From NCBI GenBank assembly GCA_017471705.1, contig JAFUSH010000023.1, positions 2,649 to 66,648 of the forward strand: 64,000 bases of DNA, in the 5' to 3' direction. Within the stretch, counting starts at the first letter, position 1. Each line of letters begins with the position of its first letter. Position numbers and translations under genes: made by a program. Positions 4,320-59,171 of this stretch are shown piece by piece. The notes under the pieces are model-generated. The model searched no databases. It saw nothing but the letters and a program-made list of their open reading frames with translations, and was not told the origin of the DNA. This stretch comes from Alphaproteobacteria bacterium. GTDB lineage: Bacteria; Pseudomonadota; Alphaproteobacteria; RF32; CAG-239.

Positions 4320-5387
4320 ATGACAGCTCCTTTAATGCCGAAAGCCACGGCTGTTTGGCTCGTTGAAAACACGGCTCTTACTTTTCGCCAAATTTCCAAA
4401 TTCTGCGAAATACACGAATTAGAAATTCAAGCAATCGCCGACGGTGATATTGCTTTTAATATTGTAGGCAGAAATCCTATTCACAATGGTTTGCTCTCTT
4501 GGGAAGAAATTCACCGTTGCGAGGCAGACCCTGCGACCGACTTGGTGGCAAACGTTTTGGAGAACAACGTCAAAGAACGCAATGCCAAGGCAAAGAAGAT
4601 TTTATCGCCGACTCAGCGCAGTGAAAAACCTTTTGCAATTTTATGGATTTTGAAAAATTGTCCGGAAATTATGGATTCGCAAATTTGCAAACTTATCGGC
4701 ACAACTAAACCGACTATCAACAAAATTCGTAACGGAGAATATGATACGGAAACAGAGTTAAAACCGAAAAATCCGGTGACCATCGGTCTATGTGATGAAA
4801 AAGATTTGGAAAATGCTCTGGCAATTTCCAAAATTCACAATCAACCGAAAAAGAAAAAGACAAAAGCTAAAAAGAAAATGACTAAAACAGCTACCGTAAA
4901 GAAAACTGCTAAAGATAAAACCAAGAAAACCACTGCTAAGAAAGCAGTTAAAGCTACTGCCAAAAAAACAGCAACCGTAAAAAAGACAGCAGCAAAAAAA
5001 GCTCCGGCTAAAAAAGCTGTTGCCAAGAAAACTACGGCCAAGAAAGCAGTTAAGGCTACTGCAAAAAAAGCGGCAACCGTAAAAAAGACGGCGGCAAAAA
5101 AGGCTCCGGCTAAAAAGGCTGTTGCCAAGAAAACCACTGCTAAGAAAGCAGTTAAGGCTACTGCCAAAAAAACAGCAACCGTAAAAAAGACGGCGGCAAA
5201 AAAAGCTCCGGCTAAAAAAGCTGTTGCCAAGAAAACCGCGGCTAAGAAAGCAGTTAAAGATACTGCCAAAAAAACAGCAACCGTAAAAAAGACAGCGGCA
5301 AAAAAAGCTCCGGCTAAAAAAGCTGTTGCCAAGAAAACTACGGCTAAGAAAGCAGTTAAGGCTACTGCCAAAAAAACGGCAAAATAA
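4320..5387 (+). CDS. DUF1013-family protein fused to a Lys/Ala-rich histone-H1-like repeat tail
   Basis: N-terminus [40 protein letters not shown] matches my recollection of alphaproteobacterial DUF1013. The C-terminal ~190 aa are AKKA/KKTA repeats. Confidence 0.85.
4927..5387 (+). repeat. about 4.5 tandem copies of a 102-bp (34-aa) repeat, [34 protein letters not shown]
   Basis: The period was measured between identical gc(t/c)aagaaagcagttaa(a/g)gc strings at about 4933 and 5035, and the pattern recurs to the stop codon. Confidence 0.9.
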
Positions 5388-5406
5388 TATTTGATATTCT
5401 GATAAG

Positions 5407-5446
5407 AAAAAACAGCGGCTTCCATTTTCAGGAAGTCGCTGTTTTA
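5407..5446. terminator. bidirectional intrinsic terminator between convergent genes
   Basis: Hairpin acagcggcttcc-attttca-ggaagtcgctgt flanked by an A-run and a T-run. Confidence 0.7.
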
Positions 5447-14048: not shown

Positions 14049-14345
14049 TTATTTTTCCTTTTTTTCCCATTCATCCAAACGCTTGGCAATCATTTTTAAC
14101 TTTTCCGCCTTATACTCATTGACCTGCTTTTCTATATCATAGCAATATTTGAGTTGACCGAGCATAATTTCCACATCGGCGGTTTCTTCGATAATTTCCG
14201 CAACATTATCTTTTTTACGATTAACATTTTTGAGTATTTCCTTAATCAATTCGCTCATTTCCTCAATAACCTGCAGCATTTGCGGCTCTTTACCCCAAAC
14301 TCTGATTGTGCGTTCATACAATTTCTGCTCATCTATATCACTCAT
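14049..14345 (-). CDS. MazG-like nucleotide pyrophosphohydrolase domain protein (98 aa)
   Basis: EEMSELIKE ... EETADVEIML resembles the EExxE...ExxD all-alpha NTP-PPase pattern. Its stop abuts the sufC start. Confidence 0.6.
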   Translation of the reverse strand: MSDIDEQKLYERTIRVWGKEPQMLQVIEEMSELIKEILKNVNRKKDNVAEIIEETADVEIMLGQLKYCYDIEKQVNEYKAEKLKMIAKRLDEWEKKEK

Positions 14346-14450
14346 CCTACGTTTCCTCCCCAGACATCATTCTGAACCCCGAATTTATGACGATGTCAAC
14401 ATTCATCCTACGCTTCCTTCCCAGACGTCATTCTGAACCCCGAATTTATG
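14342..14450. repeat. two tandem 61-bp-period repeats carrying copies of the sufB 3' end / RBS-ATGA junction plus an element end
   Basis: The string tcatcctacg(t/c)ttcct(c/t)cccagac(a/g)tcattctgaaccccgaatttatg occurs at 14342..14389 and 14403..14450. Confidence 0.9.
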
Positions 14451-14814
14451 TGAGGGGGGAAGAATCCAGTTCTAATATTCAAAACAAATCCCAATATAAA
14501 TCACTCCATTCTTTATTATCTGATTCTATCAATTTAATTTTTCTTTCTCGTCTCCAGCCTTTTAAGATTTTTTCTCGTTTAATAGCTTCTGTTATATCAT
14601 CAAAAATTTCATAGTAAACCAACATTTTAACATTATATTTCTTAGTAAATCCCTCGTATAATTCCATTTTATGTTCATACACTCTCTTAGTCAAATTTGA
14701 AGTTACACCCACATAAAGAGTACCGTTTCGTCTACTTGCCAATATATAAACATATCCCGCCATTTACATCTCTTTTATTTTATGGATTCTTCGGGCAAAT
14801 GCCCTCAGAATGAC
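14427..14814 (-). mobile_element. small GIY-YIG gene cassette bounded by imperfect terminal inverted repeats
   Basis: Left end is GTCATTCTGAaccccgaatttatgtgaggggGGAAGAATCC (14427..14467). Right end is GGATTCTTCgggcaaatgcccTCAGAATGAC (14784..14814). Flanked by a direct repeat aacattcatcc(t/c)acgcttccttcc at 14398..14421 and 14821..14844. Confidence 0.65.
14479..14763 (-). CDS. GIY-YIG nuclease family protein (94 aa, COG2827-like)
   Basis: YVYILASRRNGTLYVGVTSNLTKRVYEHK is a GIY-YIG signature. Confidence 0.9.
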   Translation of the reverse strand: MAGYVYILASRRNGTLYVGVTSNLTKRVYEHKMELYEGFTKKYNVKMLVYYEIFDDITEAIKREKILKGWRRERKIKLIESDNKEWSDLYWDLF

Positions 14815-16358: not shown

Positions 16359-16583
16359 TTATTTAATTATTACATTAACCTTTTTACCGTAAAAATCCAT
16401 AAGCTTACGCAAAGAATCATATTCCATAAATTTACCGAGTTCCATCCCATCGATGATTTTGCTCGGAATACCCGTGCTTGAGGCAACATTATTTATGTAT
16501 AAATGTTTTTCGTGACGAGCCTGCCATAATGCCTGCCCGATTTCTGATTTTGTTTGTGCATCAAATAAATAACTTTTTACCAT
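16359..16583 (-). CDS. small XRE-type helix-turn-helix protein (74 aa), paralogue of 58706..58930
   Basis: IGQALWQARHEKHLYINNVASSTGIPSKIIDGMELGK fits an HTH_XRE pattern. It is 67/74 identical to the second copy. SD is GGGAG. Confidence 0.8.
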   Translation of the reverse strand: MVKSYLFDAQTKSEIGQALWQARHEKHLYINNVASSTGIPSKIIDGMELGKFMEYDSLRKLMDFYGKKVNVIIK

Positions 16584-16606
16584 AGTTTTAAACTCCCTGA
16601 TTTGTT

Positions 16607-16765
16607 AAATAAAACAAAAACCACCTCAAATCTCTTCAAGGTGGGGAGTTCACAACTGTCGCATAAGCAGTCTTGCTTATTCAATATATTCAGCAAGCTC
16701 CCCGTTATGAGGAGTTATTTTATACGAGGAGCTGTGACACTCCGCAGACGACCTCTCGCCTGCAG
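16607..16765 (-). ncRNA. candidate ~160-nt structured RNA (sRNA or leader) with its own promoter and intrinsic terminator, copy 1
   Basis: Minus strand runs GCAGGCGAGAGGUCGUCUGC...GGGGAGCUUGCU-GAAUAUAUUGAAUA-AGCAAG...CUCCCC. It ends in a 10-bp stem CCACCUUGAA-GAGA-UUUGAGGUGG followed by UUUUUGUUUU. It is conserved with compensatory changes at 58954..59112. Confidence 0.6.
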
Positions 16766-16770
16766 AAACC

Positions 16771-16798
16771 ATATTAGACCAACGAGTGTAATTTGCAA
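16771..16798 (-). promoter_or_regulatory. putative promoter of the structured RNA (TTGCAA-N16-TAATAT)
   Basis: Identical hexamers with identical 16-nt spacing are found at 59118..59145, although the spacer sequences differ. Confidence 0.55.
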
Positions 16799-16870
16799 GA
16801 GAAAAAATTGTGTCACCCCTATTTTTTGCCGACAGGCGAAAAATTCAAGTGGTACCCAAGTTAATTTTAA

Positions 16871-34403: not shown

Positions 34404-36476
34404 CTATTTTCTATCCTTCACACTCATTTCTTCCGGAGCCTGCTGAATAATTTCAATCTGCTCGGTAACCGGTTTATATATTGTCTGTTGCCAAGGACTC
34501 TCTTCAATATATTCGTGACCGCATATACTTATGCCCAAACTGCGAAGAGCAATTTCAGTCGGAACATAAACATCCAATCCGTCATCGGTTCTGATTCCGG
34601 AATGTGCCATACCGCCAACCGTACAAGTCTTGTGGAACAATGCTCCGCCCACGGTAACATTTTGAATAAAGGTATTAACCAAGATTTCAGCACCTTTTTC
34701 TTTGGTATAGCGGTAACCTTCAATACGAGCGCTGTTTTCTAAATAATCCTGTCCTTCTTTGAAATTAGGAACATCCAACACGCCCATTGTCAAGAAACCG
34801 TCTGTTCCTACTTCAGGCAAACTCAAATTCAAAGCTAACGGAGTATATTCCGTAGGCTTATCCAACATCAACAGCGCCGTATTTTTACTCGGATTGACTC
34901 TAACTGCACGAGCGCCCATTTCAGCTCCGCGAATAGTCTTAACAGTATAATAATTATTATTGCTGTCAATCAAATCTCCCGAAGTCAAAATAAACTGATC
35001 GGAAATTAACAAACCGGCGCCTTTACGACCGTTTGAGCCATTAATTTCGACAACCGAAGAGCGCATACGATACATTGTTTCCGGTGTTAAAGCTTTACAC
35101 GGATCCGTAGCTATAATGCACAAGTTTTCAAGAGATTTGACATCACCGGTATCAATCCAAGTATCATCAACAACTTGACAAGCACCGTTTTCTATAATCT
35201 GTCCGTTTTCATCAACACAAGATTCGATAACCGGAGCTTTTTCGGTCACGCAATCACCCGTTTCACAAGCAGGAGCGCAATCACAACATTGATTGAGCAT
35301 AGCTCCCGGACGACCGATTTCGCAACTCTTTACGCATTCATACTGTTTGCGATAGCCGCATTTAAGCGGATTGATTGCTCTTTCTTCTTCAATCAAAGCA
35401 TAACGCTCGGCAGCCATTTCCTGCATAGTTTTTCTTTGCATCAATTGTTCTTCAAATCCGGTCAGACCGCGCAAATTGCTGCTGGCATCGGAGAAAGCCC
35501 TTTCAATCAACTTAACTTCGCCGTTTTTCTCACCGTAATAAAGTTCACCGTAACCGGTGCTTTCGCCCTTCCAGTAAATTTTATTCTTGGTTAAATCCAT
35601 CAAACGCCATACAACCGTAATTTCGGAACTGCCGGTTCTGGTTTCTTTTTTCTCTGATTTATTCCAATCATATTCGTCGCATACATTCATAAAGTAATCG
35701 GTAATTTCCGCCGTCAAAACGTATTCCGGAGTTTCTGCCGGAACGGTCTGCAAGCATAAATCTTTAGGCATAGGCAATACTTTGTAGCAATCATCAACAG
35801 CTTCTTCAAACACGGATTGGAAATTAATATTCTTTTCCATTATACGTCCGCTGTTAAGAGAAGCCTCTTTATTAAAACGGCGGCAACCGAAAATGCGGAA
35901 ACGATAATTACCCAGTTTGGAAGAATAAGGACCGTCAACACCATTGTTTTTAATACGGAAATCCACGTGATCTAATGCAATTGTTCCCATCTGGCAGCAA
36001 TTCTTTTGAACTGCTTCGTAAACAACCGGCGTATACGGCACATAATCACGCAAAGCTACCATTTCGGCCTGACGGGCTTCACACTGATAGCACGGTCCTG
36101 GAACCATAGCATTTTCTTTAGAACAACCGTGGCACGGTTTTCCGCCGAATAAACTTCCGTCCTTATCTTTGGCGCAGCTGGAGCAAGAACCTCCCGGAAA
36201 CAAACTTCCATCCTTATCTTTCGGTGGAACTCCATTATCCTCTTCTTGAGCGACAACAATAGGTTGCTGTTCGTATGCGACGGCTGTTGCCGGCATAACC
36301 GTTTCTTCTTCATAAACTACTTGCGGCATCTGAACTCCCGATTGTTCAACAATCACTTGTTCCGATACCGTTCCGTAATCATAATATTCATTATCGGCTA
36401 CGGCGATACCGGCAGCAAGCGAACTTGTCGCCAGAGCTGCAGTCAGCACATATAATACATTTTTGTTCTTACTCAT
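34404..36476 (-). CDS. secreted Cys-rich protein with a C-terminal trypsin/HtrA-like domain that appears catalytically inactive
   Basis: 690 aa; signal peptide MSKNKNVLYVLTAALATSSLAAGIAVA. The C-terminal GAGLLISDQFILTSGDLI...NTALLML...NVTVGGALF aligns by eye to GSG..I...TNNHV...SD(I/L)AL...GNSGGAL. Confidence 0.6.
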   Translation of the reverse strand: MSKNKNVLYVLTAALATSSLAAGIAVADNEYYDYGTVSEQVIVEQSGVQMPQVVYEEETVMPATAVAYEQQPIVVAQEEDNGVPPKDKDGSLFPGGSCSSCAKDKDGSLFGGKPCHGCSKENAMVPGPCYQCEARQAEMVALRDYVPYTPVVYEAVQKNCCQMGTIALDHVDFRIKNNGVDGPYSSKLGNYRFRIFGCRRFNKEASLNSGRIMEKNINFQSVFEEAVDDCYKVLPMPKDLCLQTVPAETPEYVLTAEITDYFMNVCDEYDWNKSEKKETRTGSSEITVVWRLMDLTKNKIYWKGESTGYGELYYGEKNGEVKLIERAFSDASSNLRGLTGFEEQLMQRKTMQEMAAERYALIEEERAINPLKCGYRKQYECVKSCEIGRPGAMLNQCCDCAPACETGDCVTEKAPVIESCVDENGQIIENGACQVVDDTWIDTGDVKSLENLCIIATDPCKALTPETMYRMRSSVVEINGSNGRKGAGLLISDQFILTSGDLIDSNNNYYTVKTIRGAEMGARAVRVNPSKNTALLMLDKPTEYTPLALNLSLPEVGTDGFLTMGVLDVPNFKEGQDYLENSARIEGYRYTKEKGAEILVNTFIQNVTVGGALFHKTCTVGGMAHSGIRTDDGLDVYVPTEIALRSLGISICGHEYIEESPWQQTIYKPVTEQIEIIQQAPEEMSVKDRK

Positions 36477-45673: not shown

Positions 45674-45764
45674 GGATAGATGGCCGAGTGGTCGAAGGCG
45701 CACGATTGGAAATCGTGTGTACCTCCAAAGGGTACCGTGAGTTCGAATCTCACTCTATCCGCCA
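45674..45764 (+). tRNA. tRNA-Ser (anticodon GGA), CCA encoded
   Basis: Hand-folded: acceptor GGATAGA/TCTATCC, anticodon arm CACGA-TTGGAAA-TCGTG, long variable arm, and T-arm GTGAG-TTCGAAT-CTCAC. Confidence 0.9.
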
Positions 45765-46081
45765 TTAAAAACAAAACAGCACCCTTGCGGTGCTTTTTTG
45801 TTTTTAAACGTGATGAGTGGGAGAAGAACTCACGGAGAAGTGAGTTCGACTACAAGCGAAAGGCAGACTTCTGGATGCCGGTCGGCAAAGCCGATGAGCG
45901 CAGTGGAACGAGCATTGCACAAGCAATGTCGAGGACAATCTCACTCTATCCGCCATTAAAAACAAAACAGCACCCTTGCGGTGCTTTTTTGTTTTTAAAC
46001 GTGATAAGTGGGAGAAGAACTCACGGAGAAGTGAGCTCGACTACAAGCGAAAGGCAGACTTCTGGATGCCGGTCGGCAAAG
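45746..46081 (+). repeat. tandem direct repeat: two 145-bp copies (2 mismatches) separated by 46 bp, each starting with the last 19 nt of tRNA-Ser
   Basis: Copy 1 is 45746..45890 and copy 2 is 45937..46081. Both contain aatctcactctatccgcca plus the terminator hairpin. Confidence 0.9.
45778..45805 (+). terminator. terminator after tRNA-Ser (repeated at about 45969)
   Basis: AGCACCcttgcGGTGCT followed by TTTTTGTTTTT. Confidence 0.7.
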
Positions 46082-58705: not shown

Positions 58706-58930
58706 TTAATCAATAATTACTTTCACCTGTTTACCGTAAAAGTCCATAAGTTTACGCAAAGAACCGTATTTCATAAATTTGCCGAGTTCCATACCATCAA
58801 TGATTTTGCTTGGAACACCGGTGCTTGAGGCAACATTATTTATGTACAAATGTTTTTCGTGACGAGCCTGCCATAATGCCTGCCCGATTTCTGATTTTGT
58901 TTGTTTATCAAATAAATAGCTTTTTACCAT
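58706..58930 (-). CDS. small XRE-type helix-turn-helix protein (74 aa), paralogue of 16359..16583
   Basis: 67/74 residues identical to copy 1; same SD and same start context. Confidence 0.8.
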   Translation of the reverse strand: MVKSYLFDKQTKSEIGQALWQARHEKHLYINNVASSTGVPSKIIDGMELGKFMKYGSLRKLMDFYGKQVKVIID

Positions 58931-58953
58931 AGTTTCAAACTCCCTGATTTGTT

Positions 58954-59112
58954 AAATAAAACAAAAACCACCTCAAATCTCTTCAAGGTGGGGAGTTCGT
59001 AACTGCCAGTGAACAGTCCGATGTATTCAATATATTCCATCAGCTCCCCATTAGAGGAGTTAATTTTCACCGGTGGAGCTACGACACTCCGCAGACAACC
59101 TCTCGCCTGCAA
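58954..59112 (-). ncRNA. candidate ~160-nt structured RNA, copy 2
   Basis: Same architecture as 16607..16765. Stem CUGAUG/CAUCGG replaces CUUGCU/AGCAAG around the identical loop GAAUAUAUUGAAUA, and the terminator hairpin is identical. Confidence 0.6.
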
Positions 59113-59117
59113 AGGTT

Positions 59118-59145
59118 ATATTAAATAAATTACATTAAATTGCAA
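59118..59145 (-). promoter_or_regulatory. putative promoter of RNA copy 2 (TTGCAA-N16-TAATAT)
   Basis: Hexamers and spacing identical to copy 1; the spacer is not conserved. Confidence 0.55.
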
Positions 59146-59171
59146 GTTGTTTTTAGCAATCGCAGCTGAAA

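Follow-up and report, generated by a model that had tools for sequence, protein, structure and literature searches.

Two related regulatory modules lie on the minus strand of the 64,000-nt stretch of alphaproteobacterial DNA analyzed here (contig JAFUSH010000023.1; hereafter, the window), and between them the stem of one RNA hairpin has been exchanged by compensatory base changes around an unchanged 14-nt loop. What constraint keeps this stem paired while its sequence changes, and what might the RNA do ahead of the gene for a helix-turn-helix (HTH) protein that follows it? We found that both modules very probably encode members of a family of functional structured RNAs that has no match in Rfam 15. 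The exchanged stem is one among four variable helices of this family; more informative about function are the long-range helices linking a strand complementary to the Shine-Dalgarno (SD) sequence (the anti-SD strand) with an upstream mimic of the SD. For the family as a whole, we lean slightly toward an explanation as an anti-SD lock and translation switch resembling the C4 antisense RNA of phages P1 and P7.

Two copies of a promoter-RNA-HTH module

A repeat search and pairwise alignment place the 440-bp unit at 58706-59146 (copy 2) and 16359-16799 (copy 1), both on the minus strand, as are all module features given below. Identity is 92% between 16359-16658 and 58706-59005, and a second aligned block equates 16728-16799 with 59075-59146; the covariance model of the family found no third copy in the window. 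Each copy carries, behind a promoter, an RNA some 150 nt long with an intrinsic terminator and then a gene for a 74-aa HTH protein, which is the sole open reading frame (ORF) of the module. The preliminary description of the locus, made from the sequence alone, had singled out the swapped stem (P4), and its pair-by-pair account is borne out. After a shared GGGGAGC, the stem reads CUUGCU/AGCAAG in copy 1 and CUGAUG/CAUCGG in copy 2 around the same loop GAAUAUAUUGAAUA; from copy 1 to copy 2, C-G is kept, U-A becomes U-G, U-A becomes G-C, G-C becomes A-U, C-G becomes U-A and U-A becomes G-C, amounting to four double changes and one wobble. The alignment likewise agrees with that description on the terminator (CCACCUUGAAGAGAUUUGAGGUGG and its U-run are the same in both copies), on the promoter (TTGCAA-N16-TAATAT in both, with a divergent spacer sequence), on the 7 of 74 residues at which the HTH proteins differ and on a 62-aa ORF of copy 2 that carries a stop in copy 1, so that coding is not the conserved signal. 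Over the 50 nt between terminator and SD, there is no difference between the copies.

The promoter of copy 2, read from the sequence, spans 59118..59145 (-35 box TTGCAA at 59145-59140, a 16-nt spacer and -10 box TAATAT at 59123-59118); it was missed by a generic promoter scan because only 8 of 12 positions match. Transcription is predicted to start near 59111, and the predicted intrinsic terminator occupies 58958..58991, with its stem at 58991-58968 followed by the U-run. Copy 1, delimited by alignment to copy 2 and by folding, runs over 16359..16798, with the -35 box at 16798-16793, the -10 box at 16776-16771 and the terminator at 16644-16621. The genes upstream of the two copies are indeed unrelated, namely that of an RlmE/FtsJ protein ahead of copy 2 and those of TerC and a 197-aa ORF ahead of copy 1; the label 'phosphatase' used earlier for this ORF corresponds to no more than a sub-threshold His_Phos_1 match (E 0.03).

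A structured RNA family absent from Rfam 15

In the protein collection, the HTH protein has only nine clusters at 90% identity, all from metagenomes or alphaproteobacterial metagenome-assembled genomes (MAGs). Every contig of those clusters (L001-L020) carries the same RNA upstream of the HTH gene, and the genes that precede the RNA there are rlmE, holA, a PHP gene and rpmG. Public collections were further scanned with the pattern GGGGAG-N7-AATATNTTGAATA, yielding at least 111 genome loci, 112 metagenome loci and 4 viral loci, at least about 174 of which are true elements. Their sources are mostly rumen or gut MAGs labelled Alphaproteobacteria, Rhodospirillaceae or 'proteobacterium RUG…', and several MAGs hold at least 3-5 loci each. 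A relaxed scan of viral contigs added one further true member, L249, beside 13 chance matches, and blastn with both the window-type RNA and the phage-type RNA described below found no match among GenBank phages. Searches of Rfam 15 with the window and the phage-type loci gave no family match, returning only tRNAs and noise at the gathering score and at permissive E-values.

We selected 121 sequences less than 92% identical to one another (alignment A2) for the analysis of covariation. The promoter TTGCAW-N16-TAATAT is kept in 107 of these 121 relatives, with a spacer mostly of 16 nt, and terminators of varied sequence occupy the same place throughout the family. RNA-only tandem copies with their own promoter and terminator are found at L028, L077 and L105, suggesting that the RNA acts in trans as well; in these cases (L028 6502-6857, L077 4374-4730 and L105 2058-2416), two complete RNAs stand ahead of one HTH gene. 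At L018 (1-702), the order is HTH-RNA-HTH. Truncated or decayed copies are seen at L117, L101:1567 and L135:740. At L019 (3001-3225), compared with L004 and L020, the upstream flank comes from one site (a PHP gene) and the downstream flank from another (DUF308, SRP54), which suggests a genome rearrangement via recombination between two module copies.

The picture of a dispersed, duplicated regulatory cassette is upheld by the two copies in the window, the at least 3-5 copies in several MAGs, the tandem and decayed copies and the location after unrelated genes (rlmE, holA, PHP and terC). The further suggestion that the cassette may be mobile is not; homology spans only the stretch from the -35 box to the stop codon. 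Two 440-bp copies within 64 kb, and many per genome, some of them truncated, might also point to an assembly duplication or to a mobile element of the MITE or IS type. We consider either very improbable: the window copies are 8% diverged, with synonymous divergence (dS) of 0.36 in the HTH gene and different flanks, the context of copy 2 recurs in independent assemblies (L001 and L020), and there are no terminal inverted repeats common to the copies, no target-site duplications and no transposase.

Covariation of the RNA helices

Assessment of the helices with RNAalifold and pair counting on alignment A2 showed 95.4% of cells to be paired, whereas shuffles reached 79.6% and sliding of the partners, a control that preserves the relatedness among the sequences, left 32-50%; double changes occur in 21 of 29 pairs. 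Five helices are backed by covariation in the alignment. The terminated RNAs of both copies fold into the same rod (z-scores -6.7 and -6.8), which comprises, in order, P0, P1 (GGAGU/ACUCC), P1b, P2, a three-way junction with P3 and P4, and the terminator. P0 is the 5' terminal hairpin GCAGGCGA-GAGG-UUGUCUGC (59091..59110 in copy 2, 16763-16744 in copy 1), defined by the minimum free energy (MFE) fold and by covariation, with double changes in 8 of 8 pairs. It is followed by the segment b1 (59077..59090; 16743-16730), defined by fold, covariation and duplex energy, which consists of the SD mimic GGAGU (the 5' strand of P1), a bulged G and UCGUAGCU (the 5' strand of P1b). The GG/CC pairs of P1 are supported in the alignment, and P1b has double changes in 4 of its 5 pairs.

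The next segment, a1 (CCGGUGAA; 59066..59073; 16727-16720), is the 5' strand of P2, recognized by folding and by a test of self against non-self pairing. P2 joins it to the stretch between ACUG and CAGU, and the 85 variants of this helix form a median of 7 bp with their own partner versus 3 bp with those of others. P3 is the hairpin CUCCUC-UAAU-GGGGAG of the MFE fold (59044..59059; 16714-16698), an internal pair of anti-SD-like and SD-like strands, and its variation (CUCC/GGGG) is limited to C/U opposite G. P4 (59018..59043, loop 59024-59037; 16697-16672, loop 16691-16678), placed by alignment, fold and covariation, keeps its pairing in further homologues as the preliminary description would have it: double changes affect 6 of its 6 pairs, and across the 121 relatives 95% of cells are paired. 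Behind it, fold and covariation place ACUG and a' (UUCACUGG, the 3' strand of P2; 59006..59017; a' of copy 1 at 16666-16659). In P5 (ACUG/CAGU), which presents a' as its loop in relatives, compensations are rare but clean (L045, L093 and L024), and a1, at -30 to -20, is the sole specific partner of this loop within -300 to +500. Five sequences with CAGC favor an extension of P1b over P5, and L045 and L093 favor P5; the two are probably alternatives or class-specific.

The helix GGGGAG/CUCCCC, previously described as essentially unchanged between the copies, fares less simply. Its sequences are kept, but it is not favored in the window copies, where the best partners lie upstream, CUCCUC for GGGGAG and GGAGU for CUCCCC; it is an alternative helix there and the closing helix in the phage-type relatives. 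At L101:804-939 (minus strand), GUGGAG replaces GGGGAG and an upstream UUCCAC compensates for it (UUCCAC/GUGGAG), a change that fits P3, not GGGGAG/CUCCCC.

These data also bear on the reading that the inverted repeat of P4 is a DNA operator for a dimeric HTH protein, with half-sites that change along with the protein. The repeat does adjoin the HTH gene, and the two proteins do differ at 7 residues. However, P4 lies about 70 nt inside the transcribed region, and read from the opposite strand its 57 G-U cells would become A-C mismatches. The other helices that covary connect segments that are far apart and not palindromic, a given stem variant can accompany different proteins and a given protein different stem variants, and only I39V falls near the putative recognition helix. 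We therefore hold an operator to be extremely improbable. The 57 G-U cells argue for an RNA on this strand rather than a DNA palindrome, and together with the strong covariation and the broken ORF they sustain the initial view that RNA structure, rather than coding or a DNA palindrome, is conserved.

Between the window copies, 9 of 12 bases of the P4 stem differ, and P2 and the core of P1b are replaced too; family-wide, the same P4 variants recur beside different P1b and P2 variants. This mosaic of replaced helices, 50 unchanged nucleotides and a dS of 0.36 speaks for recombination between family members, or for selection that diversifies sequence within a pairing constraint, rather than for slow neutral drift alone.

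Phage-type relatives and the C4 antisense RNA

A separate group, a minority of the members, is found on phage-like contigs (several from the human gut, one from IMG/VR, one of a Desulfuromonadaceae MAG, and L249), where the RNAs precede genes for Rha, AntA+KilAC or Bro-N proteins, classified in PHROGs as antirepressors or Rha-like regulators. In this phage type, the P5 loop (a') is complementary both to a segment just past the first leader hairpin (a1) and to the 8-9 nt that separate SD from AUG in the antirepressor gene (a2). There are six different sets of a1/a'/a2 sequences: ACAUAUA/UAUAUGU/ACAUAUA in the L168 type, GUUUAAG/CUUAAAC/GUUUAAG in L160 and L221, ACAAAAC/GUUUUGU/ACAAAAC in L167 and L177, GAAAACAAG/CUUGUUUUC/GAAAACAAG in L249, and, as a' and a2, UUUUAAGCC with GGCUUAAAA in L157 and UGGUUAUC with GAUAACUA in L053. 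The junction strand 5' of GCUCCCC (UGUUGAG, UUGUUAG or UUUUCAC) likewise matches two sites, one just ahead of the SD and another in or near the first hairpin, constituting the b sets.

The annotated P1 record has the order promoters, a1, b1, C4 RNA, a2, b2 and icd-ant, and the Rfam structure of C4 has a closing stem GGGG/…CCC, a first hairpin, a second hairpin with b' in its loop and a 3' junction strand with a'. Both match the plan of the phage type, implying the same topology and logic. The phage type and the C4 RNAs of P1/P7 (RF01695 and RF03163, clan CL00128) share a promoter, two upstream sites, a structured RNA, two sites at the ribosome-binding site and a regulator gene, and they share a three-way junction with a G-run/C-run closing stem and two hairpins, a form seen in the phage-type relatives and in the core GGGGAG-P4-P5-J-CUCCCC of the window type. 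In both C4 and the phage type, antisense to the site nearest the start codon is carried by the second hairpin's loop, and antisense to the other site by the 3' junction strand. The upstream sites a1 and b1 are present across the family, with strong covariation of P2 and P1b. Downstream, a2 and b2 occur in the six phage-type variants; the window type lacks a2, and its b2 is the SD region itself. Antisense and target sequences vary together between relatives, as C4 and its targets are said to do in the P1/P7 heteroimmunity reportedly described by Citron and Schuster in 1990, and the target in the phage type is an antirepressor gene, as for C4. C4 represses Ant synthesis (PMC8546580, PMC8201110), and the C4 RNA is processed by RNase P (PMC11143913). 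We consider it likely that the phage-type members act like C4, repressing translation of the antirepressor. In design, no known system comes closer to the family than C4 of P1/P7, a parallel that the preliminary description had not drawn.

Several features set the family, and above all the window type, apart from C4. Hairpin 1 bears the invariant 14-nt loop in the family and a tetraloop in C4; the window type has an intrinsic terminator between RNA and gene; it targets the SD itself and adds SD/anti-SD mimic pairs (GGAGU and CUCCUC); and its module precedes a gene for a 74-aa HTH protein rather than icd-ant and is chromosomal and multi-copy. Phage-type leaders such as those of L168, L157 and L053 have a short hairpin of their own about 60-100 nt upstream of GGGGAG, between a1 and the core. 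Its loop, (C)CCGUCAGAU, is conserved, and a U-run comes after the hairpin, which is missing from the window type and may act as an early terminator or bind a protein.

A possible anti-SD lock in the window type

In the window copies, the 3' strand of the RNA (…AACUCCCC) can pair about equally well with the upstream GGAGU mimic or with the SD region of the HTH gene. This strand, b' (AGUUACGA-ACUCCC at 58991..59004 in copy 2; 16657-16645 in copy 1), was located by folds, inverted repeats and duplex energies. In its general form, AGUU-NNN-AACUCCC, it complements both b1 (GGAGU-G-UNNNAGCU) and GGGAGUU-NNN-AACU, the SD and spacer of the HTH gene. The latter site, b2 of copy 2 (GGGAGUUUGAAACU and the AUG; 58928..58944; SD of copy 1 at 16597-16593), emerged from fold, repeat search and duplex energies, and the b'/SD arms were also reported by an independent repeat search. 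For copies 1 and 2, respectively, b1:b' yields -17.6 and -17.1 kcal/mol and b' with the SD region -17.0 and -18.1 kcal/mol; locks formed across copies are far weaker (-8.8 and -12.3 kcal/mol for b, -0.5 and -2.5 kcal/mol for a). The MFE fold of the read-through leader uses b' with the SD, and that of the terminated RNA uses b1 with b'.

Family-wide, b' pairs with its own translation initiation region at -13.1 kcal/mol, against -5.1 kcal/mol for shuffled regions, and the other SD-bearing genes of the window average about -7 kcal/mol. Among the latter, the start regions of one or two pair with the anti-SD strand at -15 kcal/mol or below and could be trans targets. The anti-SD sequence AACUCC stands with GGAGUU in 84 cases, and AGCUCC stands with GGAGC in 9 and with GGAGUU, by wobble, in 7; between the window copies, a U/C in b' covaries with an A/G after the SD.

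As b' can pair with either the mimic or the SD at nearly equal energy, we read the module as a C4-derived lock. It would be transcribed as a small unit under its own sigma-70-type promoter, comprising a structured RNA some 150 nt long, a terminator and, on read-through, a small gene for a Cro/C1-type HTH regulator. The core would comprise GGGGAG, P4 with its invariant loop, P5, the junction strand and CUCCCC, and the downstream target in the window type would be reduced to the SD region (GGGAGUU and about 7 nt). The anti-SD strand (AGUUNNNAACUCCC) could be locked in cis by the upstream mimic (GGAGU with the copy-specific P1b and P2), leaving the SD free, or could alternatively pair with the SD, blocking translation of the HTH gene; the terminated RNA may also act in trans. 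Candidates for tipping the balance would be co-transcriptional folding, a trans-acting RNA copy on a1/b1 or a factor at the conserved junction or loop. P4 would then be a scaffold that presents the invariant loop, and its swaps would stem from the need to preserve pairing in a helix that diverges fast or recombines. We give about an even chance to the window copies using the anti-SD lock in this manner.

A number of points weigh against this lock, or against its derivation from C4. The Rfam models C4, c4-2 and c4-a1b1 give no match to a window copy or to the phage-type loci even at E 10 (the positive control, P1, scores 68.8 bits with C4 and 51 bits with c4-a1b1), and the family model R1 gives no match to P1 c4; with no cross-match in either direction, homology to C4 is unproven, and the claim is that the RNA works like C4, not that it belongs to that clan. 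The MFE of the window copies prefers a nested alternative (P3 and P1) to the C4-like closed core. No downstream target of the P5 loop was found in the chromosomal type, and pairing beyond the SD core is hardly copy-specific (6.2 versus 5.8 of 9 positions), so that support for the SD pairing comes mainly from conserved sequence plus one or two positions that covary. No antiterminator complementary to the terminator was seen by eye. The lock gives no role to the invariant loop (13-14 nt), which is the most conserved feature, and the invariance of GGGGAG and the loop is itself partly forced, GGGGAG and most of the loop being fixed in the search pattern. Finally, transcription of the module, its start and end, processing, read-through and the switch with its direction are predictions made from sequence; what the sequences themselves show is the family with its helices, promoter and terminator, and the complementarities.

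A further parallel is offered by SD-sequestering translational riboswitches and RNA thermometers, in which an anti-SD strand likewise chooses between an upstream competitor and the SD and the states are nearly isoenergetic; unlike in those systems, no ligand or temperature logic is evident here, the targets are genes for regulators and some copies stand alone. A leader that works like a riboswitch or senses a protein, in which the junction (the A-rich linker, P3, the P4 loop and GACUG) binds a small molecule, an ion or a host protein to set HTH translation or read-through, would explain why extreme conservation is confined to the junction and loop while helices are free to vary. It would also accommodate the likely pseudoknot of the P5 loop with the 5' strand, the terminator and SD downstream with two isoenergetic alternative pairings, and the tandem arrangements, which are known among riboswitches too. 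Nevertheless, the controlled genes are regulators of several unrelated families with no metabolic theme, no antiterminator is evident, some copies stand alone with a promoter of their own and are followed by no gene, the plain antisense to the initiation region in the phage type needs no ligand and several paralogous copies per genome would be unusual. We regard such a sensor as unlikely.

The CcsR or 'cuckoo' small RNAs (sRNAs) are multi-copy RNAs of Alphaproteobacteria with CCUCCUCCC anti-SD motifs in hairpin loops and no linked HTH gene. Like them, the family is alphaproteobacterial, has paralogous copies with C/U-rich, anti-SD-like motifs and often lies downstream of, and co-oriented with, another gene; unlike in CcsR, the CUCC motifs of the module lie in helices, the architecture is different and no Rfam family was matched.

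The invariant loop

The loop GAAUAUAUUGAAUA varies only between A and G at one position, in 11 of 121 sequences. The same loop is present in ten distinct RNAs reached via the HTH protein and in further copies that only the model detected, with L101:804 as the exception; there, the palindromic part of the loop (described next) is replaced by the mini-hairpin CAUA-AGCC-UAUG and UCGAAUAA is kept. The loop holds the perfect palindrome AAUAUAUU, whose G variant keeps self-pairing via G-U. A kissing dimer via this palindrome is possible on modeling, and the self-duplex is weak (-5 kcal/mol versus -13.9 kcal/mol for HIV DIS).

These observations bear on a reading in which the module is a stand-alone trans-acting sRNA with the invariant loop as its active part (a seed, a protein site or a kissing interface), the HTH gene being a mere neighbor or its transcriptional regulator. 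The RNA has its own promoter, 5' hairpin and terminator, RNA-only copies exist, the loop is single-stranded and invariant, the A-to-G variant keeps self-pairing, and L101:804 has a real mini-hairpin in place of the palindrome. On the other hand, loop-complementary targets in the window are not enriched (three extra near-matches, two of them with two mismatches, versus about 1.6 expected), the self-duplex is weak, the loop is fixed by the search pattern, and intact copies precede a regulator gene at a nearly fixed distance, barring the tandem RNA-only, truncated or decayed ones. We accordingly judge this reading to be quite improbable. The window's only near-perfect candidate target is TCTTCAATATATTC at 34501-34514 on the plus strand, a one-mismatch complement of the loop.

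More speculatively, and with an expectation that it would sooner prove wrong, we raise the notion that the chromosomal modules constitute a network of self-insulated riboregulators. P1b, P2 and perhaps P4 would serve as address labels by which each RNA acts only on its own HTH mRNA, and the palindromic loop AAUAUAUU would couple the copies by kissing or via a shared factor or ligand. If true, the design would be new to gene regulation and would supply a natural library of orthogonal RNA locks. Some further readings were considered and dropped: a tRNA-like or RNase P substrate, there being no conserved CCA after CUCCCC, a T-box-like element and a mini-ORF in the loop.

The HTH gene and other downstream genes

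The HTH gene is the 74-aa ORF at 58706..58930 in copy 2 and the coding sequence at 16583-16359 in copy 1. Comparison of the two gives a dS of 0.36, a nonsynonymous divergence (dN) of 0.05 and a dN/dS of 0.14, from which we conclude that selection on the protein is purifying and that the duplication did not happen recently. The window proteins lie below the Pfam gathering score (14.5-16.4 bits for HTH_25 against a cut-off of 24.6); relatives of equal length behind the same RNA pass it (HTH_3, 23.7 versus 23; HTH_25, 29.1 versus 24.6). An AlphaFold2 (AF2) model from a 9-sequence alignment has a pLDDT of 63, too low for a fold search, and the best profile match in the PDB is a weak one to HigA (E 0.47). 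By tblastn, a relative of the window HTH protein is encoded downstream of 94 of the 154 elements with enough sequence. Most of the remaining elements precede divergent 74-89-aa ORFs of like pattern (…FYGKK..I.IE) or a gene for a 164-aa HTH_3 protein.

Implications

One large motif survey notes only that HTH-XRE genes are common near candidate RNAs (PMC8040213), and the main text of a second presents no matching HTH- or antirepressor-linked motif (PMC5737381). The family described here, new to Rfam 15 with at least about 174 instances (121 non-redundant), would carry C4-type riboregulation beyond P1-like coliphages, into uncultured Alphaproteobacteria of the gut and rumen and into their phages, and would add to it a chromosomal, multi-copy derivative linked to small HTH regulators. 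For genes that thousands of MAGs otherwise list as 'hypothetical', it proposes a mechanism open to testing, and its dozens of natural helix variants without mutual cross-reaction could furnish orthogonal RNA parts.

Other repeats in the window

Three further repeats were noted in the window. Five head-to-tail copies with a 102-nt period (reference copy 204 nt) and 64-93% identity at 4819-5430 are probably an intragenic repeat or a repeat array. Two 51-nt direct repeats that are 92% identical (14339-14450) adjoin a 94-aa ORF at 14479-14763, which is GIY-YIG-like by eye. A 145-nt direct repeat with 99% identity (45746-45890 and 45937-46081) starts in the 3' end of a long-arm tRNA gene (45674-45761) and resembles attL/attR sites around a small insertion or a duplication of the tRNA 3' end.

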